Positions 11,263 through 62,093 of a stretch of 64,000 bases of DNA are shown piece by piece. Within the stretch, counting starts at the first letter, position 1. Every line of letters begins with the position of its first letter. Under the pieces are notes generated by a model that made no database searches, was not told the DNA's origin, and was given only the letters and a program-made list of their open reading frames with translations. This stretch comes from Pholidichthys leucotaenia (lineage: Eukaryota): assembly GCA_020510985.1 (NCBI GenBank), contig CM035843.1:157123922-157187921 (forward strand), read 5' to 3'. The position numbers and the translations under genes are program-made.

Positions 11263-12132
11263 ATTTGCACTGCTCATCTGGTTGCTGGTGGTTTTATTCA
11301 CTGTGTCATCATCATCATCATCATCATCATCATCTATGAGGAAATGAGATGCTGATGAACAGGCCGGTTCTCCCACACACTGACTCATAATTAATCTGTT
11401 GCTGCCTTCCCACTAACTCTCAGTGGATATAACTGTACACTCTCATGTTTAACAACAGGGTTTTATGATTTTAAAAAGTGAGACCATGACAGATGACAGA
11501 TTGTTTCCAGACTTTTGCCACCTTCAGTGTGACCTCAAACCTGTACAGTTCAAGTGGAGAAAAACACAAAGAATACAAACAATGCAATGTATAGTTTAGG
11601 CCTTTATTCTAAGGTCACCAGACCCAGAAGAATTACATCTCATTGTGCTACACTTATTGATAGCATATTTTCAAATAATATGGATAATAACACAAAGTGG
11701 ATTAATCATCGATACTGGTGACCATCTGCTAATATTAAGTTTTTGACAATGATTACAGGAAAGAACTAGAAAAGCACTCGGACAGCGCAGGACCTCCGCC
11801 AAGTACCTCAGTTCCCCATAATATTGGGATTTTCCCCAAATATAATAGTCCTACATTTATTTTATCTATATTTTCAGATTCCTTGACCATCAAAACATAC
11901 CTTTAGCAACTGGATTCACATTGATATCTTTATTAGTTCAGTAGTTATTGACAAAAATCACTTTTTCGGTAATGGCAGTTTTCCTCTGGATATAGCTTCA
12001 TAGCTTTTGAAGATACAACAAATCCATTGACACGTCACTGATTCCTCAGTGTCTTGGCTATATTTTGGTGTTTGTTGTATGTTTATATCTTAATTTGTTA
12101 CCTTACAGTGATGAAAATTCCAAAGATCCCCT

Positions 12133-12546
12133 TGTGGGACACATATGTTGGTTTCATATGCTCCACAAATAGAATACTGTATGTATATTGTGTGCTGCAC
12201 GTCTCAGGGGAACAAAGGGACTGAGCCTCCTAGAGGTAATGGGAGGGTGTGAGATTTGGCCTTTTGTTTCAAGGAGATGGCCTTGAGAGATTTCCTGACC
12301 ACCGGAGACTAGGGGGTGGATGGTGTTAAGATCGGAGGAAGTTATATTGTGACTGGGATTAAGTACCATGTGACTGTATGTTTGATTAAACACCATGTGA
12401 CTGTAGTTTGATGTCCTAGGTATAAAAGGACAGATGTGAGAAGATTCATCCTCTTTTCCTGCTTTGAAATTGTTGGAGTATGTGATTGTGAATAAAGCTG
12501 AATCTGAGGAATAAACTCAGTCTCATCCTTCAACACATTCTCCACA
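12133..12546 (+). repeat. 5' LTR of copy 1
   Basis: Identical apart from a few SNPs to 16606-17019. Contains 'tataaaagg' at about 12420 and 'aataaagctg' at about 12485. Confidence 0.85.
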
Positions 12547-12549
12547 CTG

Positions 12550-13992
12550 GTGACCTTACGACGAAGCATGAGCAGAGATAATTCTCCTGAGCGGGGCTCG
12601 TCAGAAGCCAGCCTGACGAATGCCGCCACGTTCCAGCTGCCGGACTTCTGGCAGAATAGTCCGCGCTCCTGGTTTAGCGCGGTCGAGGCGCAGTTCAACC
12701 TCCGGAGAATCTCGAGAGACGACACAAAATTCTACCATGTGGTGGCGAAGCTGGACAACCACACAGTCCAGAGGGTGGAGAACCTGGTCAAACACCCGCC
12801 GGACAGCGACAAGTACAGCGCATTGAAGACTGCGCTTATCAGCCACTTCACCCCCTCGGTGCAACAGCGAGCAGAGGGGCTTCTAGCGTTGACGGAGTTT
12901 GAGAACGACAGACCCGCGGACCTGATGGGGAAAATGCTGAGGTTGAGAGACTCCGAAGATGACAGCTTTATCTTCGCCCACCTTTTCCTCAGGACCCTGC
13001 CGCCAGCGGTGAGAGTGACCCTGGCAGGTTCACCTCTGTTGGCCCGGCGAGACTACCACGAGCTGAGCCAGGAGGCACAACGACTCGTCGATGCCCACAA
13101 ACGGAACGCAGCTTCGGCCGCGGCAGCAGAGCTAGGCGCAACGTCCGGAGACGGCATGGGGCCAGAGGCTGCAGCACCAGACTCACCGACGACGGCAGCA
13201 GCAAGGGCCAGGCGACACAGAGTGGACGACCACCTTTGCTTCTACCATCGCCGCTTTGCAGAGAGGGCGCTCAAGTGCATTCCACCGTGCCATTTCAAGC
13301 GCTCGGCCCTCGTGGAGGAGAACAAGCTGCTCTACCTGACTGATGCACGTTCGGGGAGGCATTTCCTCATGGACACAGGCTCCCAGCTGAGCTTCATCAC
13401 GCCTTCCTACGCGGACCGGCTTGCGCCTTCCAGGGGTCCCCGGGTGTCAGCAGCGAACGGCTCAGCGATTAAGACCTTCGGGGAGAGGACTCTGCTTCTG
13501 TCTTTGCAGGGCCGTGCATTTGAGTGGACTTTTGTTGTAGCGGCAGTCAATTTCAACATGTTAGGGGCTGATTTTTTGTGCTCACATGGTTTATTGGTTG
13601 ATCTTGCTAACAGACGTCTGGTTAATGCACTCTCCTTTCACTCTATTCCCTGCACAGCTCGAGTGGCCCCGCCAACTGCACAAGCCAACGTCACAGCTGC
13701 AGGTGGTAAGTTCCACGCACTCCTCACTCAGTTCCCAGCACTCACGGTCCCAACGTTTTCGGCGACAGTGGCTAAACATGGGGTGGAACATTTTCTTACT
13801 ACCACCGGCCCGCCCGTTTTTGCAAAAGCTCGGCACTTGGACTCAGCTAAACTGACCATAGCGCGCAAGGAGTTTGCCAACCTGGAAAAACTGGGCATCA
13901 TCAGGCGTTCGAAGAGCCCCTGGGCTTCACCACTGCACATGGTCCCAAAGGCTGATGGCTCGTGGCGACCTGCGGTGATTTCCGCAGGTTGA
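12550..13992 (+). CDS. gag-protease ORF of copy 1 (480 aa, uninterrupted)
   Basis: DUF1759-like gag N-terminus. Cysteine/histidine cluster 'CFYHRRFAERALKCIPPCH'. Aspartic protease 'FLMDTGSQLSFI'. Confidence 0.75.
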   Translation: MTLRRSMSRDNSPERGSSEASLTNAATFQLPDFWQNSPRSWFSAVEAQFNLRRISRDDTKFYHVVAKLDNHTVQRVENLVKHPPDSDKYSALKTALISHFTPSVQQRAEGLLALTEFENDRPADLMGKMLRLRDSEDDSFIFAHLFLRTLPPAVRVTLAGSPLLARRDYHELSQEAQRLVDAHKRNAASAAAAELGATSGDGMGPEAAAPDSPTTAAARARRHRVDDHLCFYHRRFAERALKCIPPCHFKRSALVEENKLLYLTDARSGRHFLMDTGSQLSFITPSYADRLAPSRGPRVSAANGSAIKTFGERTLLLSLQGRAFEWTFVVAAVNFNMLGADFLCSHGLLVDLANRRLVNALSFHSIPCTARVAPPTAQANVTAAGGKFHALLTQFPALTVPTFSATVAKHGVEHFLTTTGPPVFAKARHLDSAKLTIARKEFANLEKLGIIRRSKSPWASPLHMVPKADGSWRPAVISAG

Positions 13993-15992
13993 ATAACGCC
14001 ACAGCGCACGACCGCTACCCGATTCCGCATATCCAAGATTTTCGGTTCATTTGGCAGGGGGGCGCATTTTTTCTAAAATGACTTACTATGCGGTTACCAC
14101 CAGTTCCAGTGCGCGCTGAGGACATACCCAAAACAGCGGTAATAAACTCCTTTCGGGCTTTTTGAGTTTTTGCGCATGCTGTTTGGGCTCAAGGGAGTGG
14201 TGCCAGACGTTCCAAACGCATGATGGATGCGGTCCTAAGCGATCTCCCTTTCGTGTTCGTCTTCTTGGATGACATTTTGGTAGCCAGCGCGTCCGAAGAC
14301 GAACACGAAAGCCACCTCACAGCAGTTTTCCGGAGGTTGGCAGAGCACGGGTTAATAATTAACCCAGCGAAGTGTCAGTTCAAGGTGGCGCAGATTGATT
14401 TTTTGGGGCATCGCGTTTCGCCAGAAGGAGCGGTCCCTCTGCCCGATAAGGTGCGCGCAATAACAAATTTTCCCCAACCACAAACGGTCAAAGCGTTACA
14501 AGAGTTTTTTGGGAATGGTTAATTTTTATAACAGTTTCCTCCCCCGTGCAGCGCAGCTCATGCAACCATTGTACGCTGCACTAAAAAAACAAAAAACCGA
14601 CGAATAAAATCGAATGGTCTCCTGAGCGGGAGCGCGCATTCTCTCAAGTCAAATCAGCCCTGGCAAACGCTGCGTTGTTGGCACACCCAGTCCCAATGGC
14701 CCGCATGGCGCTCACTATTGACGCGTCAGATGTTGCCATAGGGGCGGTCGTTGAACAGTACGTGGCTGGGGCTGGCAACCGCTCCGTGGTTTTTCAGCAA
14801 AACCTGCGCGATAGTGAGCGAAAATACAGCGCCGTTCGACAGGGATTGTTAGCTCTACACTTGGCCATCCGCCACTTCCAGTTCTGGCTGGAAGGACGCC
14901 GTTTTATACCGCATTCGTGGTCCCACAAACCGCTGACTTTCGCGATGGCCAAGATTTCGGAAACCTTGGTCGGGCCGGCAGCAGAGACAGCTGGCCGCGA
15001 TATCGGAGTTTACCCACCGATATCCAGCATGTGGCAGGTAATATAATGTAGTGGCAGACTGCCTCTCACGTGCTGTGGCGGCTTCCAGGCCCGTGGGGGC
15101 AGACTCTGCAGCCATGGCCGCAGACCAGGGTAGCGACGCGGAAGCGCGCGCCGCCCCCGGTCCGCGTGAGGGATAGATTTATGCCTCCATGGCCGCGAGC
15201 AGGTTAGCGACGCGGACGTGCGCGTGCTCCAGTCTGGACCAACAGGGTTTAAGGCTGGAGAGCAGGGTGCTGCAAGATGGTATGCCCCCCCTAATCTGCG
15301 ATGTCTCCACTGGACGACAGCGTCCGGTCGTACCAGCCGCGTGGCACCGCTGCGTTTTTGACTCGATGCATTCTCTGGTGCACCCGGGGGTGGCGCAGGT
15401 CGTCAGTCAAAATGGTAGGAGAGAAATTTGTAAGGCCGTGCTGAGCAAGCAGGTCAAGGAGTGGGCAACAGCCTGCGTGGCTTGTCAGGAGCCAAAATGC
15501 ACAAACACACTAGAGCTCCCTTGGAGCCTTTTCACATCCCGGCTAAGCGGTTCGATCATGTGCATGGTCGACCTCGTAGGCCCCCTTCCGGTCCGTCACA
15601 GGGGTGCACACACCTTTTTGACAATGGTGGACCGCACCACGCGTTGGGCCGGAATGGTCCCACTGGCATCAACCACAGCCGAGGAGGTGGCGCGCGCATT
15701 TTTAACAGCATGGGTAGCACGTTTTGGAGTTCCGTCAGACATTACGTCCGACAGAGGTCCTCAATTTGTGTCCGAGCTCTGGTCAGCGATTGCCCGCAGC
15801 CTGGGAGTAACGATCGACCGCACTACCGCGTACAACCCGCAGGCTAATGGTTTATGCGAACGTTTCCATAGGTCATTGAAAGCAGCCCTCAGAGCGTCAC
15901 TTACGGATACAAATTGGGTAGACAGGCTACCATGGGTTTTATTGGGGTTGCGTTCTGCACCTAAAGAGGATTTAAAAAGCCTCCCCAGCTGA
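13980..15992 (+). pseudogene. pol of copy 1 (RT, RNase H, integrase), broken into at least 4 frames
   Basis: ORF fragments carry RT 'FVFVFLDDILVAS' (14220-14522), RNase H 'TIDASDVAIGAVVEQ' (14675-15046) and integrase 'HRCVFDSMHSLVHPG...CVACQ...DLVGPLP...DRGPQFVSELW...AYNPQANGLCERFH' (15189-15992), with frameshifts and stops between them. Confidence 0.8.
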
Positions 15993-16605
15993 GTTAGTTT
16001 TTGCGCAGCCACTCGGCTGCCCGGGGAGTTTCTTCCCGGATAATCCTGCGCCAGAGTGCTCCCCTGCTCAGCGGTTGCAGAGCGACACGGGATCGAGCAC
16101 GCTTCCGGGCCCAGTTCATCACAGCTTCCCGCGCGTTTTTGTGCCTAAAAGCTTTTAAAAAAATGCGGAGTTTGTTTTTGTCAGGCATGATGCCCACCGC
16201 CCAAACTTGCAACCGCCTTATGATGGACCATTTAGAGTGCTGGAAACAGGAGAGAAGCATTTTGTGCTAGATTTGGGAGGCAGAAAGGAAGTAATTGGCA
16301 TAAACAGACTCAAACCCGCTTTTGTGATGGCTGATGAAGCTGTGCATTTGGCGAGGGCTCCCTGACGCGGCAGACCCCCTAGAGGGCATCCTCCGGAACA
16401 CCCACAGAGATTGACTAACAGTTCTAATCCACAGGCAGCGGCCCCACAGCAGGAGGACTCTGCGGAGGCAGGAAAACCGGCTTACAGCAAATACGGCAGA
16501 AGACTAAGGCCTAAGCGGCATGTGGATTGATATGTAGTGATTTTATTATGACATGCATCTTTAGTTATGATTGTTCCATCTTAGACGTTTGGGGGGGGGG
16601 GGTCA

Positions 16606-17019
16606 TGTGGGACACATATGTTGGTTTCATATGCTCCACAAATAGAATACTGTATGTTTATTGTGTGCTGCACGTCTCAGGGGAACAAAGGGACTGAGCC
16701 TCCTAGAGGTAACGGGAGGGTGTGAGATTTGGCCTTTTGTTTCAAGGAGATGGCCTTGAGAGATTTCCTGACCACCGGAGACTAGGGGGTGGATGGTGTT
16801 AAGATCGGAGGAAGTTATATTGTGACTGGGATTAAGTACCATGTGACTGTATGTTTGATTAAACACCATGTGACTGTAGTTTGATGTCCTAGGTATAAAA
16901 GGACAGATGTGAGAAGATTCATCCTCTTTTCCTGCTTTGAAATTGTTGGAGTATGTGATTGTGAATAAAGCTGAATCTGAGGAATAAACTCAGTCTCATC
17001 CTTCAACACATTCTCCACA
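16606..17019 (+). repeat. 3' LTR of copy 1
   Basis: See the 5' LTR entry. Preceded by G13 polypurine tract. Confidence 0.85.
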
Positions 17020-17399
17020 CCCTATTATTTCCTGTTCTGGATCACAGTATCCGGATTTTTTGCAGGATCGGGATCAGTCTTTGATATTTCGTAGAACCTA
17101 TTGGGATCTTATCCTGTATTTTTTTGGCAAGCGTCCTGACCATTTATTGTGGAGTTATATACACATATGCTAAAAATGGGCCTATCTCGCAATGATAAAG
17201 AATCCTTTAAAAAATTCCTGGATCCAGACGGTGATCCGTATCACTCCCAAAATCTAATCATTTCTTCATTGTCCCATTTTGGACTTGTCCTGAAAATTTC
17301 GTCAAAATCCATTGATAACTTTTTGAGTTATGTTGGTAACAGACAGACAGACAAACAAACCCCGGTAAAAACATAACCTCCTTGGCGGAGGTAAAAACA

Positions 17400-17665: not shown

Positions 17666-19289
17666 CACCATAATAGGACTAGTTGTTATAATCTGGATAA
17701 CCATGAAAACCGGTACTACCTGTCTTATGGGTTGGGCCGCCGGCGACTCAACCAGCAACCCTGTCCTTCTGAGGGCGTGGAGGATGAAACTGGGCATCCT
17801 GGCAGAACTAAAAACAATATCTGTCACAGGTCTGTGGTGGACCACTCCCAGTTACACCGGGTGAGACTGGACATCCTGGCAGATAAACACGTCTGTCGCA
17901 AGGTCTGTGGTGGACTTTTGCCAGTCGGTGCATCGTGACATGCAAGACACAAAGAGCAGAGATAAACAAACCTATCATCTGGTCAGTCACTGCAACAGAT
18001 ACTGGAGTCAGTTTGTCTTGGCCTGTCCTTGCCACCGATAATACCTCTATCTGCCAAGAATGTGCCGCTAGTCCAGCAAAAGCTAGCAGTACTCAAATAC
18101 TTTGCAAGCAGTTTCATGAAAGTCAGTCAGAAAGCAACTCATACTGGCTCGGACGTCGCCTGGGTAAACAAGGTCAGGAGTTCCTGGCAGCGGAAGGCGA
18201 AGGACAGAGCTGCGTGGAGGAATCTGATCAGACCTAAATGAAACAGTCATTGTCGCCCCCGACAGACTGCGATGATGATGATGATGTTATAATCCCTAAA
18301 ATCAGCACCTTAGTTGACTGGTTTCAACCAACTCGGCCCCCAACCACTATGTCTTCCTGGGTGGAGTTGATGACCTCATGGCGCCGCCAATGCAACACAT
18401 CATCAGTTGTGCACCCCAAGGCTCACTGGGTGTTTCGGCCTTTTATCACAAGACACCCTCACCCAAGGCTGGACCACCACAGGCTGATCAGGCCTGGCCG
18501 TATGTTGTTTGGGGGCTCCATGTAGTCATTTGACAGCTCATACTGTGTCCTTCCTTTTCAGCCATAGCCAGTGACTGCTTCTCTTAGTGACACTGGCAAG
18601 CTCTTTGATAGTTCTCTGTTGGACCTGCCCCCTATCTCCCACCTCCTTCAGTAGTCTTGTGGTGGAACTGGCTACAAAACTCCTGCAGCCCACCTTCACA
18701 GGGCGCACCTTTACATTCCAGCCCGGCTCCTCTGCTTCATCTGCAAGGTTTGCATATCGCAGCCTTTTCCTTTCGAAAGCCTCATTGATGGATTCCTCCC
18801 AAGGGATTGTCAGCTCAACGATTCAATTCAATTCAATTCAACTTTATTTATATAGCGCCATTTCACAACAACAGTCATCTCATAGCACTATCAACTATAG
18901 GGAGGACCCCCACAGTTGCAGAAAGACCCCAGCAATCAGGCGATCCCCTGTGAGCAAGCACTTGGCGACGGTGGAGAGGAAAAACTCCCTTTTAACAGGA
19001 AGAAACCTCCAGCAGAACCAGGCTCAGGGAGGGGCAGTCATCTGCTGCGACTGGCTGGGGGGTGAGGGGATAGAGAAGAAGAAAAGAACAGACATGTAGA
19101 GAGCAAACAGCACGATGGGGACTCAATCTATGGGAGAGAACAAACAAATGTTAATGACCAGCAAAAAAAAAATATTTCATAGAGAGTGAGGAAAGGAGTG
19201 AGGCCCAGTGCATTACTGGAGGTCCCCCGGCTGACTAAACCTATTAGCAGCATAACTAAGGGAGGGTTCAGAAAACACATGATCCCTCC

Positions 19290-22200
19290 CTAATTGTAGG
19301 CTATATCAAAAAGGTAGGTTTTAGCCCTATTCTTAAAAACAGAGATCGAGTCTGACTCCCGAATCCAGATTGGCAGCTGATTCCACAGGAGAGGAGCTTG
19401 ATAACTGAAGGCTCTGCCTCCCATTGTACTTTTGGAGATTCTAGGTATTACAAGTAAACCTGCATTTTGGGAGCGTAGTGCTCTGTTAGGATGATACGGT
19501 AGTATCAGATCTTTTAAATAAAAAGGAGCCTGATTGTTTAGAGCTTTGTAAGTAAGAAGAAGGATTTTAAACTTAATTCTAAACTCTATGGGAAGCCAAT
19601 GAAGGGAGGCCAGAACCGGAGAGATATGATCTCTCTTTCTAGTACCTGTTAAAACTCTTGCTGCAGCATTTTGGATCAGCTGAAGACTTTTTAAAGATGT
19701 TTTAGGACAACCTGATAATAAAGAATTACAATAATCTAATCTCGAGCTAACAAAAGCGTGGATCAGCTTCTCAGCATCACTCTGAGACAAGATGCTCCTA
19801 ATCTTGGCAATATTACGCAAATGATAGAAGGCAGTCTTAGAAACAAATTTAATATGTGAATTGAAGGACAAATCCTGATCAAAAATAACTCCAAGGTTCC
19901 TCACAGAGCTATTAAGAGAAAGAGTAACTGCATCCAAACTGAAAGTTTGATTTGGAAAGGAATTTCTAAGGTTTTTTGGACCAACAAGAATGACTTCAGT
20001 CTTATCTGAATTTAATAGCAGGAAATTACAAGTCATCCAAACTTTGATTTCCTTAAGACAGGCTTCTAACTTGGCTAATTGATTAGTATCATCTGGCTTC
20101 ATTGACAGGTATAATTGTGTGTCATCTGCATAACAGTGAAAATGTATACAGTGCTTTCTAATAATGTTGCCTAACGGAAGCATATATAAACTAAAAAGAG
20201 TAGGGCCAAGCACAGATCCCTGTGGAACTCCTTGACTAAGCTTTGAGCTGAGAGAAAACTCATCATTTACATGAACAAACTGGAACCTATCAGATAAATA
20301 AGATCTAAACCACTGCAACGAAGTTCCATTAAGTCCAACATAGTGTTCTAATCTATCAAGTAGAATATTATGATCAATAGTATCAAAAGCTGCACTAAGA
20401 TCTAAAAGGACAAGTACAGAAACTAGTCCATTATCAGATGCAATGAGGAGGTCGTTAGTGACCTTCGCTAAGGCTGTTTCAGTGCTATGATGGATTCTAA
20501 ACCCAGATTGAAACTCCTCAAATAAACCATTTCCCTGCAGGTGGTCAAATAATTGCATAGCAACAACTCTTTCTAAGATTTTTGAAATGAAAGGGAGATT
20601 AGAGATTGGTCTATAGTTAGCTAAAGCTCCTGGATCTAGCGTTGGCTTTTTGAGTAAGGGTTTAATTACAGCCGTTTTAAAAGCCTGCGGTACATGGCCT
20701 AAAGTTAATGAAGAATTGATTATATGAAGAATAAAGCTACCAATAAGTGGGAAGACTTCTTTAAATAACCTGGTAGGAATAGGGTCTAAAAGACAAGTTG
20801 AAGGTTTGGATGAGGAAACTATTTTGTCTAACTCACAAAGGTCGATTGGAGTAAACTCATCAAGACAGACATCAATAGAAGGAGTTGTAGTAGTTACAGT
20901 ATTTAAGTTAACTGTGGGAAGAATCTGATTGATTTTATCTCTGATGGATGAAATTTTATTATTGAAAAAGTTCATAAAGTCCTGACTAGTAAGCTCTAAG
21001 GGAATCCAAGGATTGACAGAGTCCTGGCTCTTTGTCAACCTGGCTACAGTACTGAAAAGAAACCTGGGATTATTCTTGTTCTCTTCTATTAATGCAGAGT
21101 AATAACTCGTTCTAGCTTTTCTAAGAGATTTTTTATAAATTAAAAGATGATTTCTCCAAGTTAAATAGATTTCATCTAAATTAGTAGAGCGCCATTTTCT
21201 TTCTAATTGACGAGTCTTCTGTTTTAAGCTACGAGTTTCTGTGTTGAACCAAGGAGTTAAAAATCTCTGATTAGACTTTTTCTTTTTTAAGGGGGCCACC
21301 AAGTCTAGAGCCTGATGTAGAGAAGCTGAAACACTATCCACCATGTTATCAATTACAGAAGGAGCAAGCTGTCTATAGCTTATTTCCGTTGTGTTGACAC
21401 ATGGCATAGAGGAAACAATCTGCATAAATTTGGAAACAGCATCATCTGAGAGGCATCTACTGTGATAATATTTTTCTTTAGGAGCCAAATAGTCAGAAAT
21501 AGTAAAATCAAAGGTTAACAGACAATGGTCTGACAGTACAGGGTTATGAGGAGACACTACCAGATTTTCTATTTCTATGCCATATGTCAGAACAAGGTCC
21601 AATGTATGGTGGAGGTAATGAGTAGAATTTCCTACTTTCTGAGAAAACCCAATCGAGTCTAATATTGAATTAAAAGCCACATTAAGGCAATCACTATCTA
21701 CATCCACATGTATATTAAAGTCCCCTACTATAATTATTCTATCAGATTTCAGCACTAAATCAGCTAAGAAATCAGGAAATTCGGATAAAAATTCTGAATA
21801 GGTTGATGGGGGACGATAAACTATGGCAAATAAAATTGGGTTTAACCTGGAATTGCTAAAGTGCCCAATACTGAGGACCAGGCCCTCAAAGGAATTATAA
21901 CATGTTTTTTGCTTTACATTAACTAGTAATTTGGAATGGTAAATTGTTGCTACTCCTCCTCCACGACCAGAACTTCTGGGATTTTGACAGTTTAAATAAC
22001 CAGAGGGAGTTGATTCATTTAAACCAACATAATCCTCTTGCCCTAACCAAGTCTCTGTAAGGGATATTAAATCAATCTGATGATCAATTAACAGATCATG
22101 GACTAACAGAGACTTGGGAGTTAGAGACCTAATATTTAATAAACCACATTTAATTTTTAAATTATGAGGAGGAACAGAGGCCAAATCATTCAATTTAGAG

Positions 22201-22469
22201 GCTTTATGTTTAATTTGAGTTTTACCAATATTTTGCTTTATCACTTTGGGATGCTTATACATTATATTTTTATTTACTTTGGAGGGAGCAGACAACGATT
22301 CTCTGATGGGGAAGACAGGGGCTAAGTTGAGGGGGTGGCGGATGAAGAGGAGCTGCAGAGAGGCGTGTAAGACTGCGACTCTGCTTCCTGGTCCCAACTC
22401 TGAGTAGTCACGGTTTTGGAAATTTGGATAAAAAAGATGCCAGATTGTTAGATAAATGAGAAGCACCAT
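19290..22469 (-). CDS. L2 ORF2: APE endonuclease plus reverse transcriptase, 1059 aa, uninterrupted
   Basis: Endonuclease '[33 protein letters not shown]'. RT '[17 protein letters not shown]', '[19 protein letters not shown]', 'CYADDTQLY'. C-terminal '[11 protein letters not shown]...[12 protein letters not shown]' block. Confidence 0.85.
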
Positions 22470-23163
22470 CCAAAGTGGGATGAATGCTGTCTCGTCTCAT
22501 AAGACCAGGTTTTCCCCAAAAAGAGCTCCAATTGTCAATGTAGCCCACGTCATTTTTAGGACACCACACAGACAGCCAGCGGTTCAAGGATGACGAGCGA
22601 CTAAACATGTCATCACTGGTCAGATTGGGGAGGGGCCCAGAGAATACTACAGTGGCAGACATCGTTTTTGCAAAGTCACACACCGATTCTACATTAAGTT
22701 TCGTGACTTCCGACTGCCGGAGACGGATGTCATTAATGCCGGCGTGAATAACAATTGTGGAATATTTACAGTTACTTTTAGCCAGCATTTTCAAATTTGA
22801 CTCGATGTCGCCTGCTCTGGCCCCAGGAATGCATGTGACTATGGCCGATGGAGTCTCTAGGTTCACGTTTCTGACTACAGAGTCGCCAATGATCAGAGTT
22901 TTTTCCTCAGCGGGTGTGTCGCTGAGCGGGGAAAAACGATTAGAAACGTGAACAGGTTGGTGGTGAACCGGGGCTTTGCGACTAGGCTTCCTTCTCACCG
23001 TCACCCACCCAGTCTCCTCGCTGCAGAGGAGAGCCGGGGAACCGGTGACAGGGGGACCTAAACTAGCTAGCTCCGCTGCAGCTAAGGGGCGTCCGTCGAG
23101 ATTAACTGGCGCAGACGGTGTTTCAATGCAGCGGAGCCGGGATTCCAAACGATGAAAACACAT
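22408..23163 (-). CDS. L2 ORF1 with SGNH/GDSL-type esterase domain, 251 aa
   Basis: '[11 protein letters not shown]' (GDS motif) and 'IHAGINDI' blocks, typical of CR1/L2-clade ORF1 esterases. May lack a few N-terminal residues. Confidence 0.65.
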
Positions 23164-23858
23164 CGGCAGAATTTGGACCAGAGGACCAGGGGCCTCATGT
23201 ACAAAGACTTGTGTGGATTTCCTACTGAAAGATGACGTACCTTTAAATCAAGAAAACACCATAAGCAAAAAAAAAAAAAATCTAGATGTATGAAACAGTG
23301 TGTACGCAGGAATCCAAGCACATTTCCTTTGTACATCCCAGTCTACTTGAAATTGAACGGCACGTGAGGAAATACCAGACTCCTCCCTTGACACGTCTCC
23401 ATTTAGATATGCAATTGGATGCAAATAGATACAGTTTCTCACAAAAGTGAGTACACTCCTCACATTTTTGTAAATATTTAATTATATCTTTTCATGGGAC
23501 AACACTGAAGATATGACACTTTGATACAATGTAGTCAGTGTACAGCTTGTATAACAGTGTAAATTTGCTGTCCCCTCAAATTAACTCACCACACAGCCAT
23601 TAATGTCTAAACCGCTGGCAACAAAAGTGAGTACACCCCTAAGTGAAAATGTCCAAATTGTGTCCAAAATGTCAATGTTTTGTGTGGTCAACATTATTTT
23701 CCAGCACTGCCTTAACTCCCTTGGGCATGGAGTTCACTAGAGCTTCACAGGTTGCCACTGGAATCCTCTTTCACTCCTCCATGATGACATCACGGAGCTG
23801 GTGGATGTTAGAGATCTTGCGCTCCCCCACCTTCCGTTTGAGGATGCCCAACAGATGC

Positions 23859-24479
23859 TCAATAGGGTTTAGGTCTTGAGACATGCTTGGCCAGTCCATC
23901 ACCTTTACCCTGTTTCTTTAGCAAGGCAGTGGTCGTTTTGGTGGTGTGTTTGGGTTCGTTATTGTGTTGGAATACTGCCCTGCGGCCCAGTGTCCAAAGG
24001 GAGGGGATCATGCTCTGCTTCAGTATGTCAGCGTACATGTTGACATTCATGGTTCCCTCAATGAACTGTAGCTCCCCAGTGCGGGCAGCACTCATGCAGC
24101 CCCAAACCATGACACTCCCACCACCATGCTTGACTGTAGGCAAGACACACTTGTCTTTGTACTCCTCACCTGGTTGCCGCAACACATGCTTGACACAATC
24201 TGAACCAAATAAGCTTATTTTGGTGTCATCAGACCACAGGACATGGTTCCAGTAATCCATGTCCTTAGTCTGCTCGTCTTCAGCAAACTGTTTGCAGTCT
24301 TTCTTGTGCATCATCTTTAAAAGGTGCTTCCTTCTGGGATGACAGCTATGCAGACCAATTTGATGCAGTGTGCTTCGTATGGTCTGAGCACTGACAGGCT
24401 GACCCCCCCCCCCCCCCCACACCCTTTCAACCTCTGCAGCAATGCTGGCAGCACTTATACATCTATTTTCAAAATACAA
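23859..24479 (-). pseudogene. Tc1 transposase, C-terminal 206 aa in frame; N-terminus frameshifted
   Basis: 'HVLWSDDTKISLFG', '[18 protein letters not shown]', 'FQHNNEPKHT'. Upstream helix-turn-helix part is in another frame (around 24500-24660). Confidence 0.75.
24400..24419. repeat. Poly-C homopolymer
   Basis: About 19 C in a row. Confidence 0.9.
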
Positions 24480-25077
24480 CCTCTGGATATGACGCTGAAC
24501 ACATGCACTCTACTTCTTTGGTCGACCATGGCGAGGCCTGTTCTGAGTGGAACCTGTCCTGTTAAACTGCTGTATGGTCTTGGCCACCGTGCTGTGGCTC
24601 AGTTTCAGGGTGCTGGCAATCTTCTTATAGCCTAGGCCATCTTTATGTAGAGCAACAATTCTTTTTTTTTTAGATCCTCAGAGAGTTATTTGCCATGAGG
24701 TGCCATATTGAACTTGACCAGCATTGGAGAGTGTGAGAGTGATAACACCAAATTTAACACACTTGCTCCCCATTCACACCTGAGACCTTGTAACACTGAC
24801 AAGTTACGTGATCCTGGGGAAGGTAAATGGCTAATTGGACAGAATTTGGACATTTTCACTTAGGGGTGTGCTCACTTTTGTTGCCAGCGGTTTAGTCATT
24901 AGTGACTGTGTGTTGAGTTATTTTGGGGGGACAGCAAATTTACACTGTAATACAAGCTGTACACTGACTACTTTACATTGTATCAAAGTGTCATATCTTC
25001 AGTGTTGTCCCATGAAAAGATATAACAAAATATATACAAAAATGTGAAGGGTGTACTCACTTTTGTGAGATACTGTA

Positions 25078-25208
25078 TATACAAGTGCTACACATTTGAT
25101 TCTCCTGTATCCACGATCAAAAATAATGGATTTAATGGAATTTCATGGACTTTGAGTTGGAGGTGCTCCTGAAGGAGGTAGAGGTGCTTAAAAACATCTT
25201 ATTTGAGG
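25078..25208 (-). repeat. Repeat R, distal copy, segment between the Tc1 and the L1 copy A insertion
   Basis: Reverse complement matches 490-620. Confidence 0.7.
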
Positions 25209-25361
25209 ACTTCTGGTTATGGCGGCCACGTAGGAAGACGTGTTTTGCCCTGCTCTGCTCCTAAAGATAAAAAGTCGGCAAATAACTCTCTCATTTGGAA
25301 CAAAGCCTATCCCAGCGTTTGGGCGAGGATATGCCGGTAAAGCCTAAGTCTGGGAAATCAG

Positions 25362-26219
25362 GTGGAGGGAAAAACTGAACCGCCGAAACAGTCCAAGTTA
25401 ACGGACTTTCACGTTCGTGATGGAGCAGAAAAATCTTCAGATATGGCGGAGCAAGCTAGTGGCGGAGCGGTGACTGCTGGCGACGGCACAGGTGCGGTGC
25501 TCGCTGCCATTAGCTCAATGAGAGCAGACTTTTCCGCTAAATTTGATGGGATTATAGCAGCGATAGAAGGAAAGAGAAAGGAAATAAGTGACTGTATGGA
25601 ACGAGTAACGCAGGTGGAGCTCCGAATTTCCAGCGTTGAGGATGACGTCACCAGCCTACAATTAAAGGTGCGCACATTGGAATTAAAAAATAAACGTCTG
25701 GAAGATAATGTCCTGGACTTAGAATCCCGGTCGAGATGGAACAACCTGAGGCTGGTGGGTCTCCCGGAGGGAACCGAGGGTCGGGACCCATGTTCCTTTT
25801 TGGAAAAGTGGATTCCAGAAGCGCTGAACAACGCGGAGCTGCAGTCATCAGTCGTTTTAGAGAGCGCCCATCGAATTGGCCCACCGAGAGATAATAAGGC
25901 ACCACCAAGGACGCTGATTATGAAGTTCCTCAGCTACAGAGACAAGATGACGATCTCCAACGCGGCGCGAGCCAAAGGAGAAATTAAATACCAGGATCAA
26001 CAGGTGCGGTTCTACCCAGATTTGGCCACAGGAATCCAACATTTAAGGAAACAGTTTGACCCCGCCCGTAAAGTGCTGCACAGCCTCGGGACTCCTCATG
26101 GAGTGATTCATCCTGCAAGATTGCTGGTCACATATAAGGGCAGAACTCACACCTTCAAGACCCCTGAGGAGGCGCAGGAGCTCATCAAGCAGATCCAAGA
26201 GGAGACTGGTGGGAGCTAA
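25362..26219 (+). CDS. L1 ORF1p, copy A (coiled coil, RRM, C-terminal domain), 285 aa, uninterrupted
   Basis: 'NNLRLVGLPEGTEGRDPCSFLEKWIPEAL...LESAHRIGPP...PRTLIMKFLSYRDKMTISNAARAKGEIKYQDQQVRFYPDLA...HPARLLVTYKGRTHTFKTPEEAQELIK' is the Transposase_22/L1 ORF1 architecture. Confidence 0.8.
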   Translation: MEGKTEPPKQSKLTDFHVRDGAEKSSDMAEQASGGAVTAGDGTGAVLAAISSMRADFSAKFDGIIAAIEGKRKEISDCMERVTQVELRISSVEDDVTSLQLKVRTLELKNKRLEDNVLDLESRSRWNNLRLVGLPEGTEGRDPCSFLEKWIPEALNNAELQSSVVLESAHRIGPPRDNKAPPRTLIMKFLSYRDKMTISNAARAKGEIKYQDQQVRFYPDLATGIQHLRKQFDPARKVLHSLGTPHGVIHPARLLVTYKGRTHTFKTPEEAQELIKQIQEETGGS

Positions 26220-26656
26220 GCATGAAGCATGAATAAAATATAAGGTAGAATATTTAAGCATTTGCACAGGCATCTGACTGCTCTGAAGCATATAGCAAGT
26301 TTACAAAATATAGATTGTATTATATATTAAAAAAAAACCTATGATGTACAAAGTTGCTATAAAATTTTGGAGTTAAGTTGGAAAAGTACAGAAGAGAGTT
26401 AATGTTACGTCATTAAAAGCAGTAGAGTCAGGGTGATTGAGAGGATAAAGAGGGAGTGGCTTTGGCTGGTCCTCGCGGGTGTGGAGCAGTCAATGGCTAT
26501 AGCGGGAGACAGAATTTTTTTTGATTTTGGGGGGATTACCACAAATGTGGGAAGGGGGAATTTGTTTGTGTGTAGTTTGTAGGATGAATGTTCAACCACT
26601 CATGTTTTTGCTTCTCTGTATGAAAATGTTTACATTGCAAGGTAATCTCAAACTCC

Positions 26657-29600
26657 TTGTTGATCATAGACCAAAGCGTTAATCTTAATTTAACTTCATG
26701 GAATTGCAGAGGTCTACAAAATTTAAAAAAACTTAAACAAGTTATGAATAAAATAAAAGACATAGGTTCAAAAATTGTGTTTTTACAAGAAACTCATCTA
26801 ATAGAGGAGGATGTAAAAAGAATTAGGAGAAGATGGCAAGGAAGTGTATTCACCTCATCATTTTCATCCCGAGCCAGGGAAGTTATGACTCTCATACATA
26901 AATCAATCCCATTTCAAGTGAAAAATGTAATTGGAGACAAATTTGGAAGATATCTAATCATTCAAGGATCTTTGTTATTAGAAAATATAAATCTGGTGAA
27001 CTTATACGGTCCCAATATAGATGATCAAAATTTCTTTGCTAATTTATTTCTTATTTTATCATCACTTACAGGGCAACATATAATAGCAGGGGATTTTAAT
27101 TGTGCATCGAATCCCAGTATAGATAGATCAACAGGACTGGACTGTACGCACAATGGATGCAGGATGATCATTAATCATTTTATGAAAGAATTGAGATTGC
27201 TAGATATATGGAGAGAAATGAAACCACAAGTTAAAACCTACTCTTGTTATTCTAATACCTACAAGACATTCTCACCTATTGACTATTTTTGATCTCCACA
27301 GAATTAAGGTCCAAGATTCAAAACTGCTTCTATGATAATATTGTGATCTCTGATCATGCACCCTGCTGTCTAATCTATGTAGATAAGAAATTGACAAAGG
27401 AACCAGGTAGGTGGCAATTTCAGCATAAATGGCTCAGGATGAGGAATTATGTTAAGTACATAGAAAAACAGATGAGTTTTTTTGATATCAGATACTACAC
27501 AAACATCTGCATGTATAAAGTGGGAGGCTTTCAAAGCTTTAATTGGGGGCCTATTATTAGTTATACAGGTTCAAAATCTAAGAAGACTCGAGAGGGAGAG
27601 AGGTCCAATTGGAACATAAAATCAAAATTCTTCAAGAAAAAGTGTATGCAGGAAGTGACCCAAAGTTAGAGAACGAATTACTGATTCTGAGATCTGAATC
27701 ATGTACAAAAAATCAGCGACTAGAGCTGCCTCGAGTCTTCTAAGATTGAAGCAATCTTTTTATGAACAAGGTGAAAAATCAGGAAAATTATTGGCATGAC
27801 AGATTAAACAATTAGAATTTAAAACACCAATTACCACTATTATAAGTAATGGACAGGCAGTTGTAGATCCTTTAGAAATTAATAGTGCCTTTAGAGATTA
27901 CTATGAAAAATTATATGATACAAAAAAATGAAAACTGACTTAACAAAACTAATGGGTTTTTAGACGGATTATCTATACCGTGAATCCTAATGAAAACAGG
28001 GAGACACTGAGTCTAAAAATTAGTCAAGAAGAAGTTGGGCTAGCCATTGATAATAATGAAATCAGGAAAAAGTGCAGGACCAGATGGTCTTCCAGTTGAC
28101 CTCTATAAAAAATTTAAGAATAAATTAATAAAACCATTTTTGGAAATGGTTTTAGAAGCATTTCAAAATAGTAATTTACCACCATACATGAATAATGCCC
28201 TTAATTATACTGTTGCCAAACAGAGTAAACCCTCTAATAATGTGAAAAATATGAGACCCAGTAAGTCTATTAAATGCTGACCTTAAGATAATCTGTAAAA
28301 TTTTGGCAAGACGACTACAAGAAATATTACCAAATATTATTAACCGAGATCAGAATGGCTTTATAAAGAGGGGTAGCACTGTCCTGGTAAGAAGTTACTT
28401 AAAGAATAGATATCAGTTTGTATGTGTTAAACAACAAAAACTCAGAGCTACTGAAGGTCACCTGTGGAGTCCCCACAGGGTTCAGTTTTGGGACCATTAT
28501 TATTCAATATGTATATAAACTGATATATGTAAAGTTTCAGAAAAATGGACTTAATATTGTTTGCTGATGACACTAACCTGCTATGCAGTGGAAACAACTT
28601 GGAACAACTTTCTGGATACCACTCGGAAAAGGAATTAGGAAAGCTGAAACTGTGGTTTGATTCGAACAAAATAACGCTCAATTTAAGCAAGACAAAATTT
28701 ATAGTCTTTAACAACCATCACAACTACCCAGTACCCCAAACTCAGTGTAAATGGTTGTAGAGATTGAAAGGGTATCCGAAACTAAATTCCTTGGAGTAAT
28801 AATTGATAACAAACTGTGTTGGAAGCCACATATTAATTTATAAAAGGTAAAGTATCCAAATCACTTGCAATATTACACAGAGTGAAAAATTTGCTGAATC
28901 AACCCACACTATACCACCTTGTATCAATCATTAATACTCCCATACATGACATTTTGTAATGAAGTATGGGGAAAACATATAAAAACAAACATATATCCCA
29001 CTCTTTAATGCTTCAAAGAGAGCTATTAGAATAATAAACAAAGCAGCTTACAGGGAACCAACAAACCCACTTTTTCTTAACAAAAAACTCTCAAGTTGAA
29101 AGATCTGATCGACTTTAAAACCGCAATAATAATGTTCAAAGTGAAGAATCTATCACTGCCCGCAAATATCCAAAGTTGTTCCAAACAAGGGAGAAACGAT
29201 ATCACTTCAGAGGAACATGGTATATTTCAAAAGCTACAGTGAGAACAACTACCCACAAGCAACATTGTATTTCAGTGCAAGGTGTTCACGATTATGGAAC
29301 GATTTTGGACCTGAATTAAAATCATGTACAAAGCTTGGACAATTTAAACAAAAACTAAAGGAAGAAATACTCCAAACATATTTACAAGACGACATGTAAA
29401 CTCACATAAGGATTGACATTTCAGCCTGTGTTGTGTTATAGCTTAGTTTTTCTTTTTTCTCTGTGACACTATGTCTTAGATTTGTTTTTGAATAGTAACC
29501 GCTTAACTTAGACTAGCTCAGTTTTCTTTTTCTCTCAGTCATATTTTGTCTTAGCCTTGTTTTAAATTGTAATCGCTCTTGTCTTGTTTTCCTCTTTTTT

Positions 29601-31685
29601 CTCCTTTGAATTCTTGGATGGAATATGGGTGGGCAATATAAGCTGCGGCTTCAGCCATCACCCATTTCGGATAACTCACGTGGAATTGTATAGTAGAAGG
29701 AGTCTTTGTCTAATTTGACCTTGTTGTTATATTATACAGTTTCTTTTAACCTGTAATGTACTATCCGAAATAAATTCATTCATTCATTCATTCATTTCAT
29801 TCATTCATCATAAAGGGAAGACAAGGCTTCCATAATGTAAGAAGACTATTTAATATTATCTATTCTAATAAAGAAGCACCGGATACAGCTCTCCTATCAT
29901 TGGACGCCGAAAAGGCCTTTGATAGGGTCGAATGGCCCTTCCTTTTTGAAGTCTTACAAAGGTTTGGACTTGGAAATAATTTCATAAAATGGGTTCAGAT
30001 AATATACAATAATGCTACAGCAGAAATCCTAACAAACAGCAATATTTCAAAATCAATAAATATCAATAGAGGATGTCGACAAGGCCTGTCCACTTTCACC
30101 TTTACTGTTTACTATGGCAATTGAACCTTTAGCGATGGCAGTACGTTTACATCCACAATTATATGGAATTAAAGTAGGACCAACAGAACATAAAATCTCC
30201 CTGTATGCTGACGACATAATTTTGTTTATGTCGAATCTTAAAAAAATCAATTCCGACCTTGTTGAATTTAATAAAGAATTTTGGGGAAATATCAGGATAT
30301 AAAATAAATAAAACTAAATCTTCAATATTAATGCTAAATGAGACCCAGAGAAATCACCCAGCTCCTGAGGTAAATCAATTCAATGTTGTAAATCAGTTTA
30401 AATATTTAGGAATTCAAATTGTGCCTAAGCTAGAATTAGTCGCCAGTGCCAATTATGAAGCCTTAATGACAGACATTAATGAGTTACTTCAGAGATGGAT
30501 GTCACTACCAATGTCGACGATTGGGAGAATCAATATACTTAAAAGTAATATCTTACCCAAAATACTTTATTCAATACATTCCTTTACCACCACCTTCAGA
30601 TCTATTCTCAAGAATTAAAAAAAAAGTTAGTGGAATTTATATGGAACAATAGGAAGGCTAGATTGCGTCTGTCCTTACTATATTTACCATTTGATCGTGG
30701 AGGTCTGAAATGTCCAAACTTTATGTTGTATTACTGGTCAGCACAACTGAGGTCTATGACATATTATTTTTCATCAAATGATCTCCCTCACTGGACTGAA
30801 ATGGAATCATACAATTTACCTTTACCTCTTCCCATATTCATATACTCAGACTCGGCAAAAAAATTACAGAAACAAGTTAAAAATCCATTTGTAAAGCATA
30901 TGATCAAATATGGGTGTGAAACCGAAAAATATTTATAAGAACCACACTTATTGTCACAATTTAGCCCAATATGGGGTAATCAATATTTTAAACCAGGGAA
31001 AGCGGATGCTGTGTTTAAAGTATGGAATTTAAAAGGGATTCAAAAGATTCAAGAGACTTATATCTGTCATGTTCAATAACATAATGTCTTTTTGAAGAAC
31101 TGAGGATCAAATTTAATCTTAATAGAACACATTTTTTTAAAATATCTTCAGCTTAGGAACTTTAGTCGATCAAATCAAAATAATGCTCTCATCCGACCTA
31201 CTTATTCATCCTTGGAAAAAATTTTGACGAAAGATAGTAAGAGAAAGGGTATTATTTCAGAGTTTTATAACTCAATTGACACTATCCTCAAGTGAAAACT
31301 CACAGAAAAGATTGAATTATTGGAAAGAAGACCTGCAAACTGAAATTTCAGAGGAACAATGGGAATTGGTTTGTACAGAAGCTCAAACCAAATCAATAAA
31401 TGTACGTCTTAAATTGATACATTTTAAATGGTTAATGTGGATATATGTTACACCGGTGGAGTTAAATAGATATAACAAAAACATACCAGATACATGCACA
31501 AAATGTATGGAAAGTAAAGGAACCTTATTTCATTGTTTATGGGAATGTAGAAAAATTAGAATGTTTTGGGAAGAGGTGAGGGTAACAATTGAAAAAATAA
31601 TTTCAAAACAAATCATGTTGAATCCTAAATTGTTTTTGTTGGGTCTGCATCCAGAAAAGCATAACTTTGATAAAAGTGAAAGAGC
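26657..31685 (+). pseudogene. L1 ORF2 of copy A (APE endonuclease plus RT), split by frameshifts and a nested LINE
   Basis: Endonuclease 'LTSWNCRGLQN...VFLQETHL...IAGDFNC...SDHAP' (26657-27400). RT start 'GPDGLPVDLYKKF...[12 protein letters not shown]' (28047-28330). RT resumes at 29813 '[10 protein letters not shown]...[14 protein letters not shown]...YADDIILF'. C-terminal cysteine domain 'CTKCMESKGTLFHCLWECRKIRMFW' (about 31490-31580). Confidence 0.8.
28373..29812 (+). mobile_element. CR1/Rex-like LINE 3' fragment nested inside the L1 copy A RT
   Basis: Splits the L1 RT between 'GFIK' and 'GRQGFHN'. That junction is uninterrupted in copy B (about 34895) and copy C (about 59725). Carries RT '[17 protein letters not shown]', 'ILFADDTNLLCSG', a 3'UTR and an (attc/tcat)n tail at 29776-29810. 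Flanking 'aaag' direct repeat. Confidence 0.75.
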
Positions 31686-39660: not shown

Positions 39661-40140
39661 AATCTTCTGTCTTTAAATACCCTTTCTCTTCTCATTGCGC
39701 GATTTGCAATATCGTCTAATAATGCTAATGTGGGCGACACACATTGTGGGCTCACGTTTCCACAGAGACAGGACTGCATGTGTATTGAGGGTGTCACGTC
39801 TGCAAGGACAAAGAACTCGAATCCGCAGAAGATAACAAGGAGGTGTGAGATTTGTCTCTTTGTCCCACAGAAGATGCCCCGGAGAGATTTCCGGTTCATC
39901 AGGAAATGAGAGACAATGGTGAAGATTCAAAGGGATGCTTTGTGACTGTATGTTTACTGAAAACACCATGTGACTTGAATTCTGATGCTGGAAACATATA
40001 AAAGGGTGATGAGATATGATTCTTTCTCTTTCCTGCTTTGAGAATGCTAGAAGCTGTGTTCTGTCAATAAAGCTGGTTTACGACTAAACTCAGCCTCATC
40101 ATTTGAGCACATCTTCTACACTGGTGACCTACGACGAGAA

Positions 40141-40905
40141 ATGAGCAGACAGAATTCTCCCGAGCAGGGCTCGGCGGAAGCCAGCCTGATGGCCGCCTCC
40201 ACGATCCGGCTGCCTGATTTCTGGCAGCACAGCCCGCGCTCATGGTTTAGCGCAGTCGAGGCGCAGTTCAACCTCCGGAGAATCTCCAACGACGACACAA
40301 GATTCTACCATGTGGTAGCGAAGCTGGACAGCAACACGGTCTAGAGAGTGGAGGATCTGGTTAATCATCCACCAGACAGCGACAAGTACAGCGCATTGAA
40401 GGACGCGCTGATCAGCCATTTCACCCCTTCAGTCCAACAACGAGCAGAGGGACTCCTGACGTTGACGGAGTCAGAAAATGATAGACCTGCGGACCTGATG
40501 GTGAAGATGCTGAAGCTCAAAGACTCTGAAGATGGCGAATTCATTTTCGCCCACCTTTTCCTTCGTACCCTGCCGCCAGCAGTGAGAGTGGCCCTGGCAG
40601 AGTCGCCCCGATTGGCCAGGCGAGACTACCATGGGTTGAGCAAAGAGGCGCAGCGGTTGGTCGACGCCCACAAGCGGAACGCAGTTTCGGCCGCGGCGGC
40701 TAGCCCAGGAACGTCATCCGGAGACAGTGCAGGTCCAGCGGCCGCGGCGCCAGACGCACCAAGGACGGCGGCGACGGGAGCCAGACGACGCGGAGCGGAG
40801 GACGGCCCGTGCTTCTACCACCGCCGTTTTGCAGAGAGAGCGCACAGGTGCGTGTCACCGTGCAACTTTAAGCGCCAGGGAAACGCCAAGACCGAGGGCC
40901 GGTAG
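40141..40905 (+). pseudogene. gag of copy 2, interrupted by an in-frame stop and a frameshift before the protease
   Basis: 'LPDFWQHSPRSWFSAVEAQFNLRRI' then stop at 40345, then 'EDLVNHPPDSDKYSAL...CFYHRRFAERAHRCVSPC', then stop at 40903. Protease 'DTGSQ' lies in another frame. Confidence 0.75.
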
Positions 40906-40976
40906 CAGCTGCGACCCTCGGCAACGAGAACAGGCTGCTTTACCTGACGGATGCACGCTCGGGGAAACAGTTCCTC

Positions 40977-62077: not shown

Positions 62078-62093
62078 AGAAAACCCTTGTGCA

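Follow-up and report, generated by a model that had tools for sequence, protein, structure and literature searches.

A locus on contig CM035843.1 of Pholidichthys leucotaenia carries two long open reading frames on the minus strand, which a preliminary description assigned to a full-length L2-clade LINE at positions 18820-23190. The locus raises the question of whether two uninterrupted reading frames, the first opening with an ATG, are those of a complete element. Within the window, that is, the whole 64,000-nt stretch of DNA analysed, we place the insert instead at 18822..23147 on the minus strand (4326 nt, bounded by TCGTT) and conclude, with a probability of about 90%, that it is a recent, 5'-truncated ZfL2-1-like LINE of the L2 clade (CR1 group) in the genome of a percomorph fish.

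The reading frames themselves have exactly the sizes first given for them, and both are uninterrupted. ORF2 (19290..22469, minus strand) encodes 1059 aa as listed, and the apparent ORF1 (22408..23163, minus strand) encodes 251 aa; the latter proves to be a chimera when the ORF listing is read together with its relatives, the target-site duplication (TSD) and the empty site. The two frames overlap by 62 nt and differ in phase, and the 3'UTR (18822..19289, minus strand) extends from the ORF2 stop to the tail. The insert is collinear with L2 copies of Thunnus thynnus, starting at about nt +140 of tuna ORF1 and continuing through the tail.

The esterase motifs GDS and GINDI noticed in ORF1 are present, at S95 and N144, within an SGNH esterase domain (aa 90-245; 22429..22896, minus strand) that matches PDB chain 4c1b_A (E=2.3e-29) and the Pfam profile Lipase_GDSL_2 (PF13472; E=7.7e-9, above the curated cut-off). 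This domain can be aligned over its whole length with that of ZfL2-1 from Danio rerio (AB211149; ORF1p structures 4C1A/4C1B), a LINE with the same two-ORF layout of an SGNH-esterase ORF1p and an ORF2 with endonuclease (APE) and reverse transcriptase (RT). In the alignment to 4C1B, S95 (GDS), G114, N144 (GIND), D225 and H228 (DSIH), together with the transposon-specific residues H140 and S175, correspond to ZfL2-1 S143, G165, N195, D279, H282, H191 and S228, residues named in PMC3905857; all are kept. With its four blocks, Ser-Asp-His triad and Gly/Asn oxyanion residues all present, the domain is predicted to be an SGNH (GDSL) hydrolase. The view that intact esterase-bearing copies are a rarity finds no support: a homologue search returned 331 homologues across many percomorph genomes, most teleost L2s encode an esterase ORF1 (PMC13343379), and L2 elements of this kind are the norm in teleosts.

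ORF2 has the composition expected of an L2/CR1-group LINE, an N-terminal APE-type endonuclease (aa 111-315; 21525..22139, minus strand; Pfam PF03372, Exo_endo_phos, E=1.4e-12) and a central reverse transcriptase (aa 608-862; 19884..20648, minus strand; Pfam PF00078, RVT_1, E=1.6e-33), as had been proposed from its motifs. The endonuclease retains the N/E/Y/D-N/D/D-H series in the motifs LLNIRSL, LTETW, VYRPP, GDFNIH, TLDLVL and LSDH, which are conserved in 15 relatives with which ORF2 is collinear, and the reverse transcriptase contains YADD at aa 780 as well as LNSDKTE; a check for mutated catalytic residues found the esterase, endonuclease and RT motifs all intact. At columns invariant among the relatives ORF2 deviates in 4 of 266 (1.5%), against 0.4-2.9% in percomorph control relatives. 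In-frame ATGs lie at 22469 and then at codon 70 (22262-22260). ORF2 is complete and uninterrupted, though the initiator Met of some relatives (P0126 and P0129, 'MLP..E(H/Q)(L/S)PTQN') is absent. Searches of ORF2 against PDB returned distant RT matches only (human L1 ORF2p and group II intron RTs), which are uninformative on clade. Elsewhere in the window, a weak RT-like fragment (67%) at 48771-48976 is what is left of an old, unrelated LINE.

At the 3' end a predicted stem-loop precedes a run of short tandem repeats, and poly(A) is absent. The stem-loop (18852..18891, minus strand; 10-bp lower and 5-bp upper stem; RNA fold z=-5.8 to -6.2) occupies the position of the ZfL2-1 stem-loop recognised by ORF2p and can be aligned to the tails of tuna L2 and ZfL2-1 (SL1WT). 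It overlaps a conserved box, GGCGCTATATAAATAAAG (18842..18859, minus strand), which is identical in tuna L2 and whose last 17 nt (GCGCTATATAAATAAAG) differ from ZfL2-1 GCGCTATACAAATAAAG by one base, so that both elements share the form GCGCTATA(C/T)AAATAAAG. The microsatellite tail recorded at the end of the 3'UTR is (TGAAT)x4 at 18840-18821 on the minus strand, the same pentamer as in the ZfL2-1 tail, and 36 of the last 38 nt of the element agree with the 3' tail RNA published for ZfL2-1 (SL1WT). A search of the whole window for further copies of the box found the element's own only, and no tail-sharing SINE.

The similarity of this tail and of the ORF1 esterase (E=2e-29 to 4C1B) to ZfL2-1, which the literature places in the L2 clade, indirectly supports the original assignment to that clade and suggests an L2-type, ZfL2-1-like LINE of the CR1 group. 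The single-ORF L2 LINEs ZfL2-2 (zebrafish) and UnaL2 (eel) are alike in their stringent-type 3' recognition, with a stem-loop and a short tandem-repeat tail, but have no ORF1, a (TGTAA)n-type tail and a different stem-loop sequence. The preliminary description considered competent L2/CR1 elements poorly characterised in vertebrates; ZfL2-1 and ZfL2-2 both retrotranspose in cell assays, and the ORF1p crystal structures and the mechanism of 3'-tail recognition have been published. The type of element is already known, and the Pholidichthys insert is an ordinary copy of a well-known fish LINE.

Its nearest counterparts are found among percomorphs. Esterase-ORF1 L2 copies such as those from Thunnus thynnus (L001-L003), Epinephelus, Channa, Oreochromis and Anabas, the last four carrying the database label 'uncharacterized protein', share the family-level architecture and the 3' box and show 68% amino acid identity in ORF1 and ORF2, whereas the ORF2 of cyprinid elements is only about 53-55% identical to that of Pholidichthys. 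Tuna L2 ends in (TTGA)n, where the Pholidichthys copy has (TGAAT)n. In tuna L001 the two ORFs share a frame, with ORF2 coming after the stop of ORF1, unlike the overlapping frames here; the spacer is shifted in frame when compared with the tuna copy.

Comparison with these relatives indicates where the element begins. Full-length tuna copies contain a 271-nt 5'UTR and a complete ORF1 of 292-294 aa, and the mutual homology of two of them (-271 to +4580) puts a full-length relative at about 4.85 kb, compared with 4.33 kb for the Pholidichthys copy; ZfL2-1 is 5.0 kb. Nucleotide homology of the Pholidichthys copy to tuna begins at TGGAATCCCGG, nt +140 of tuna ORF1, so that about 410 nt of the full-length tuna copies are missing, among them the entire 5'UTR. 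In protein alignment all 15 ORF1 relatives (about 285-305 aa) possess some 46 additional N-terminal residues ('MASLS..CSVCQMFS..CNKCSLFAALEARLSELEARLRTME'), comprising a CxxC...CxxC motif and a heptad stretch, and the Pholidichthys protein joins them only at '..LESRLRCIE'. The LINE-derived part of ORF1 thus starts at about codon 47 of the family's roughly 293-aa protein and has no start codon of its own ahead of the junction. A search for the missing N-terminal peptide in all frames upstream of ORF1 and across the whole window gave chance-level matches only, and exact-sequence look-ups of ORF1 and ORF2 in public assemblies returned no match. For ZfL2-1, the source on ORF1p describes only a coiled coil (M15-P47) and an arginine-rich motif, whereas the percomorph relatives have CxxC...CxxC ahead of a short heptad stretch; the Pholidichthys copy lacks the N-terminal coiled-coil/Cys segment because of truncation.

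The flanking DNA bears this out. The insert lies between two copies of TCGTT, one at its 5' end (23148..23152, minus strand) and one at its 3' end (18817..18821, minus strand), the first T of the latter doubling as the end of the last tail unit; the length of the duplication is ambiguous between 4 and 6 bp given the A/T it has in common with the tail. De novo ZfL2-1 inserts likewise have 5-bp TSDs (PMC4245944). Deletion in silico of the insert and one TCGTT restores a continuous open reading frame of another repeat, which resumes at ELTIPWEESINEAFERKRLRY and whose downstream half (ELTIPWEESINEAFERKRLRY...SSHWLWLKRKDTV to the stop; 18538..18816, minus strand) is flank outside the LINE. The join is contiguous in 9 aligned fish homologues (22 matches in all), with the consensus ...RPDLVLWSKSCRRVFIVELTVPWEEAIDEAFERKRLRY... 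The argument for truncation rests on this continuity; a 5-bp TSD might by itself be fortuitous. Given the bounded insert and the restored host frame, the ATG at 23163, which lies 14-16 nt outside the insert, and the first five codons are therefore flank DNA, and codons 1-5 together with the first base of codon 6 (23163-23148) derive from the flank.

That both ORFs are open, that the catalytic motifs and 3' tail are intact and that ORF1 begins with an ATG would fit a full-length, potentially competent L2 whose ORF1 is complete and whose own 5' end lies near 23190. We regard this as highly improbable: the ATG is outside the TSD-bounded insert, the flank is a different repeat whose frame is restored on excision, and the approximately 46 conserved N-terminal residues and 271-nt 5'UTR of the relatives are absent. 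The sequence upstream of the insert (23153..23426, minus strand) belongs to the host repeat and contains no LINE 5'UTR. A 240-nt unit within it (23186-23426) was considered as a LINE 5'UTR and rejected, since an 80% partial copy at 959-1179 has no LINE after it, and the unit is part of the interrupted host-repeat ORF. The copy is thus missing the 5'UTR together with about 46 codons from the start of ORF1, and the designation full-length has to be withdrawn; when checked against the copies of other fishes, the ORF1 start is truncated, and no frame encodes the conserved N-terminus.

The family's 5' end is reconstructed from other species whose nearest proteins are only 68-70% identical, a distance that would permit a lineage-specific subfamily with masters naturally devoid of the N-terminal Cys/coiled-coil region, encoding a short ORF1 behind a new or very short 5'UTR, in which case the copy would be full-length for its family. 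In its favour, divergence in the ORF1 linker somewhat exceeds that of control relatives, and ORF1 loss and turnover recur in CR1-group elements (PMC13343379). The sole ATG, however, sits in DNA of the interrupted host-repeat ORF, and the homology sets in midway through the heptad segment, which is what a random point of truncation would give; we hold such a subfamily to be very unlikely.

The insertion is probably recent, since ORF2 is as conserved as in its relatives and no catalytic motif of the esterase, endonuclease or RT is missing. Retention of about 3.9 kb of intact ORF implies a divergence of at most 0.5-1% since insertion, at 95%, an estimate that depends on assumed mutation parameters (indel:substitution ratios of 0.05-0.15). 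The CpG observed/expected ratio of the insert (0.43) equals that of its AT-rich flanks and is silent on age. Long intact ORFs might also be those of a LINE-derived, domesticated host gene, a reading to which we give almost no credence: the TSD, the tail and the nesting in another repeat are hallmarks of a fresh transposon insertion, there is no sign of host-gene structure, and the relatives are multi-copy within genomes (three tuna copies are mutually 97-98.6% identical).

From this anatomy and published work on ZfL2 elements, a plausible origin for the truncated insert can be proposed. Attached to its own RNA at the stem-loop and the (TGAAT)n tail, ORF2p of an active source element would have nicked a target in the reading frame of a different interspersed repeat and primed reverse transcription at the nick. 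Either this synthesis or the joining at the 5' side would have stopped about 410 nt before the 5' end of the RNA, leaving the 4326-nt insert between 5-bp TCGTT duplications. The copy retains the complete ORF2 with its endonuclease and RT, the 3' recognition module and the ORF1 esterase domain; gone are the 5'UTR, which is the presumed promoter, as well as the CxxC...CxxC motif and the greater part of the ORF1 coiled-coil/heptad segment. The 251-aa ORF1 is open only through a chance in-frame ATG in the flank, 16 nt upstream of the junction.

Having lost the presumed promoter and the ORF1 N-terminus, and with its ATG borrowed, the copy by itself is most likely transcriptionally dead and not autonomous. 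Truncation of ORF1 is by itself no proof of immobility, because ZfL2-1 can retrotranspose in HeLa cells without its ORF1p. Together with the intact ORF2, 3' stem-loop and tail, this leaves room for a truncated element that still functions through read-through from the host repeat or an adjacent Tc1-like element, supplying ORF2p for its own RNA or for tail-sharing SINEs. We consider this unlikely, as the ORF2 initiator of P0126/P0129 is absent, the spacer is shifted in frame and the window holds no tail-sharing SINE. The more specific proposal, that the promoter-less copy is active through read-through ORF2p and perhaps a monomeric, esterase-only ORF1p made from the borrowed ATG, mobilising itself or tail-sharing SINEs, is a slim prospect; were it true, the locus would be a natural in vivo test of the dispensability of the ORF1p coiled-coil/Cys region, to be compared with that of ZfL2-1 ORF1p in HeLa.

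Beyond annotation the significance of this copy is small. It is a clean example of a nested insertion with a resolvable empty site, and it illustrates that two open ORFs and an ATG are insufficient to call a LINE full-length: since the ATG comes from the flank, a screen for 'intact' LINEs that relied on ORFs would count this copy wrongly. For the organism, the intact ORFs show recent activity, in the Pholidichthys genome, of a ZfL2-1-like L2 family whose ORF1 encodes an esterase.

In the region of the L2-type insert (18822-23147), the minus strand carries two uninterrupted open reading frames of the sizes first described: ORF1 (22408-23163, minus strand, 251 aa) and ORF2 (19290-22469, minus strand, 1059 aa), whose ends share 62 nt read in different frames. 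Pfam searches recovered each of the expected domains, namely Lipase_GDSL_2 on ORF1 (E=7.7e-9, above the curated cut-off), Exo_endo_phos on ORF2 residues 111-315 and RVT_1 on ORF2 residues 608-862 (E=1.6e-33). The 3'UTR (18822-19289, minus strand) ends in the anticipated microsatellite tail, reading ...GGCGCTATATAAATAAAG-T-(TGAAT)x4 with its last base at 18821.

ORF2 aligns end to end, with no internal gaps, to 15 relatives from percomorphs, cyprinids, characins and cod. Its endonuclease (EN) motifs (LLNIRSL, LTETW, VYRPP, GDFNIH, TLDLVL and LSDH), its reverse transcriptase (RT) motifs and the conserved C-terminal region SRLDYCN...LHWLP are all present, and it deviates at 4 of the 266 columns (1.5%) invariant among the 15 others; the same leave-one-out measure gives 0.4-2.9% for percomorph relatives. 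Some relatives, such as the database proteins P0126 and P0129, start ORF2 at the Met in 'MLP..E(H/Q)(L/S)PTQN', whereas the window ORF2 lacks an ATG there; its in-frame ATGs lie at 22469, within ORF1, and at codon 70, which still precedes the EN domain. In the tuna (Thunnus thynnus) locus L001, ORF1 and ORF2 share one frame, ORF2 coming after the ORF1 stop, whereas the spacer of the window copy shifts the frame. Elsewhere in the window, a weak (67%) match to the LINE RT region at 48771-48976 marks the old remains of a different L2-like element.

Residues 90-245 of ORF1 match 4c1b_A (E=2.3e-29), the crystallized esterase domain of ORF1p from zebrafish ZfL2-1 (PMC3905857), an L2-clade element that is retrotransposition-active in cell assays. 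When this alignment is mapped onto the residues named in PMC3905857, the ZfL2-1 catalytic triad S143, D279 and H282 corresponds to window S95, D225 and H228, the oxyanion-hole residues G165 and N195 to G114 and N144, and the transposon-specific H191 and S228 to H140 and S175. Over its final 38 nt the window element matches the ZfL2-1 3' tail RNA, ...AAAGCGCTATACAAATAAAGCTGAATTGAATTGAATTGAAT (supplement of PMC4176376), at 36 positions and has the same pentamer tail. A stem-loop predicted upstream of the 3' box (z=-5.8 to -6.2) occupies the position of the ZfL2-1 stem-loop recognized by ORF2p. These ORF1 and 3'-tail links to ZfL2-1 point to a ZfL2-1-like element of the L2 clade.

Contrary to the preliminary description, such elements are neither uncommon nor poorly characterized. 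Our ORF1 search returned 331 homologues, the best only 68% identical, with many esterase ORF1s per genome in Thunnus, Epinephelus, Channa, Oreochromis and Nothobranchius. According to a 2026 survey, CR1/L2 lineages have no type of ORF1 other than the esterase type, which most teleost L2 (clade A) elements encode (PMC13343379). Vertebrate L2 retrotransposition has, moreover, been dissected experimentally in ZfL2-1, ZfL2-2 and UnaL2. The database proteins P0029, P0037 and P0232 bear odd organism labels: a caecilian (Rhinatrema bivittatum), nr names of 'Mustela putorius furo' attached to Oreochromis proteins and, for a 'reverse transcriptase', Vibrio parahaemolyticus. Such labels suggest contamination or wrong naming, with horizontal transfer as another possibility.

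Three independent lines of evidence agree that the window copy is not full-length, contrary to its initial designation. First, 15 of 15 aligned ORF1 relatives, mostly 287-305 aa long, begin with approximately 46 residues absent from the window ORF1 (MASLS..SPALSCSVCQMFSYSSASFSD.G.CNKCSLFAALEARLSELEARLRTME, a CxxC...CxxC motif and then a heptad stretch). Only at ...LESRLRCIE does the window ORF1 enter their alignment, and the missing N-terminus is not encoded in any frame upstream of it. At the DNA level, similarity to a tuna copy begins at TGGAATCCCGG, nucleotide +140 of the tuna ORF1. Second, the pentamer TCGTT lies directly 5' of the first homologous base (23152-23148) and again directly after the tail (18821-18817), as a target-site duplication (TSD); de novo inserts of ZfL2-1 likewise produce 5-bp TSDs (PMC4245944). 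Third, removal of 18822-23147 and one TCGTT restores a single open frame (...ELTIPWEESINEAFERKRLRYANL...SSHWLWLKRKDTV, then a stop). The reconstructed peptide, used as a query, hit 22 fish proteins (Takifugu, Solea, Serrasalmus and others), and all nine homologues aligned run unbroken over the join, with the consensus ...NLRPDLVLWSKSCRRVFIVELTVPWEEAIDEAFERKRLRY... The LINE-free site would read ...TTTTCATCGTTGAGCTG...

The TSD and the restored frame together indicate that the LINE inserted within the ORF of another interspersed repeat (18538-18816 and 23148-23426, with a partial copy at 959-1179). The ATG at 23163 and the codons for MCFHR are host-repeat sequence, and the 251-aa 'ORF1' is a fusion produced by chance read-in. 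The host repeat encodes a conserved C-terminal peptide, RPDLVLWS...VFIVELTVPWE...VEVGCRGF...SSHWLWLKRK, found in Pfam-less 'hypothetical proteins' of Takifugu, Solea, Serrasalmus and Merluccius; its RPD...x14...E-x-T spacing may correspond to that of a PD-(D/E)xK restriction-like endonuclease of the kind present in R2/Rex6-type LINEs.

Other repeats populate the surroundings. Directly upstream of the host repeat lies a Tc1/mariner-like DNA transposon (23433-25081; terminal repeats 23426-23500 and 25007-25081, 91% identical) with a decayed transposase ORF (23859-24479, minus strand). Two GC-rich units of ~4.9 kb, 12133-17020 and 39726-44592 (GC 0.53-0.55, CpG o/e 0.85-0.96), are each bounded by 99.5% identical direct repeats (12133-12547 and 16606-17020; 39726-40122 and 44196-44592), with interiors only ~82% similar. 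The pair resembles two young LTR retrotransposons from related families. Large AT-rich blocks with internal tandem structure are duplicated between 25205-37219 and 56561-62078 at 81-95% identity (for example 32868-37219 with 57689-62078, 90%; 29810-31685 with 59723-61605, 94.6%) and may represent either a segmental duplication or a repeat with long units.

The tuna loci L002 and L003 are homologous to each other from -271 to +4580, counted from the ORF1 ATG, so a full-length relative measures ~4.85 kb, and ZfL2-1 is 5.0 kb long; tuna L001 is itself truncated, at -8. At 11266-11324 of the L001 locus (OZ004743.1), approximately 0.9 kb downstream of its L2, an isolated second copy of the L2 3' box with its tail lies in inverted orientation and may be either a strongly truncated L2 or a SINE with a shared tail. 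The window insert, at 4326 nt, lacks ~139 nt of ORF1 and roughly 270 nt of 5'UTR, and its 3' module is intact. Compared with the N-terminal coiled coil (M15-P47) that dimerizes ZfL2-1 ORF1p (PMC3905857), the window copy retains little beyond one heptad.

In this sequence a random substitution creates a stop in 4.0% (ORF2) and 2.9% (ORF1 part) of cases. In a model with indel:substitution ratios of 0.05-0.15, in which ~3.9 kb stays open with at least 5% probability, divergence since insertion would be no more than 0.5-1.0%, and the insertion is probably recent. The best relatives of the window ORFs are 68-70% identical.

By analogy with what has been published on ZfL2 elements, a source element's ORF2p would have bound the stem-loop and tail and nicked the target, target-primed reverse transcription would have followed, and 5' joining would have preceded completion of the cDNA, with possible T/TT microhomology of 1-2 nt at the junction. 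Lacking a 5'UTR, the window copy is without its own promoter; most likely it is silent and non-autonomous. In HeLa cells ZfL2-1 can do without ORF1p (PMC3905857), so a read-through transcript could in principle be mobilized, an outcome that we consider unlikely. The element is of a kind already known, and this copy is ordinary, probably young and 5'-truncated. It looks complete only because the flank donated a start codon, and recognizing this is a useful correction.
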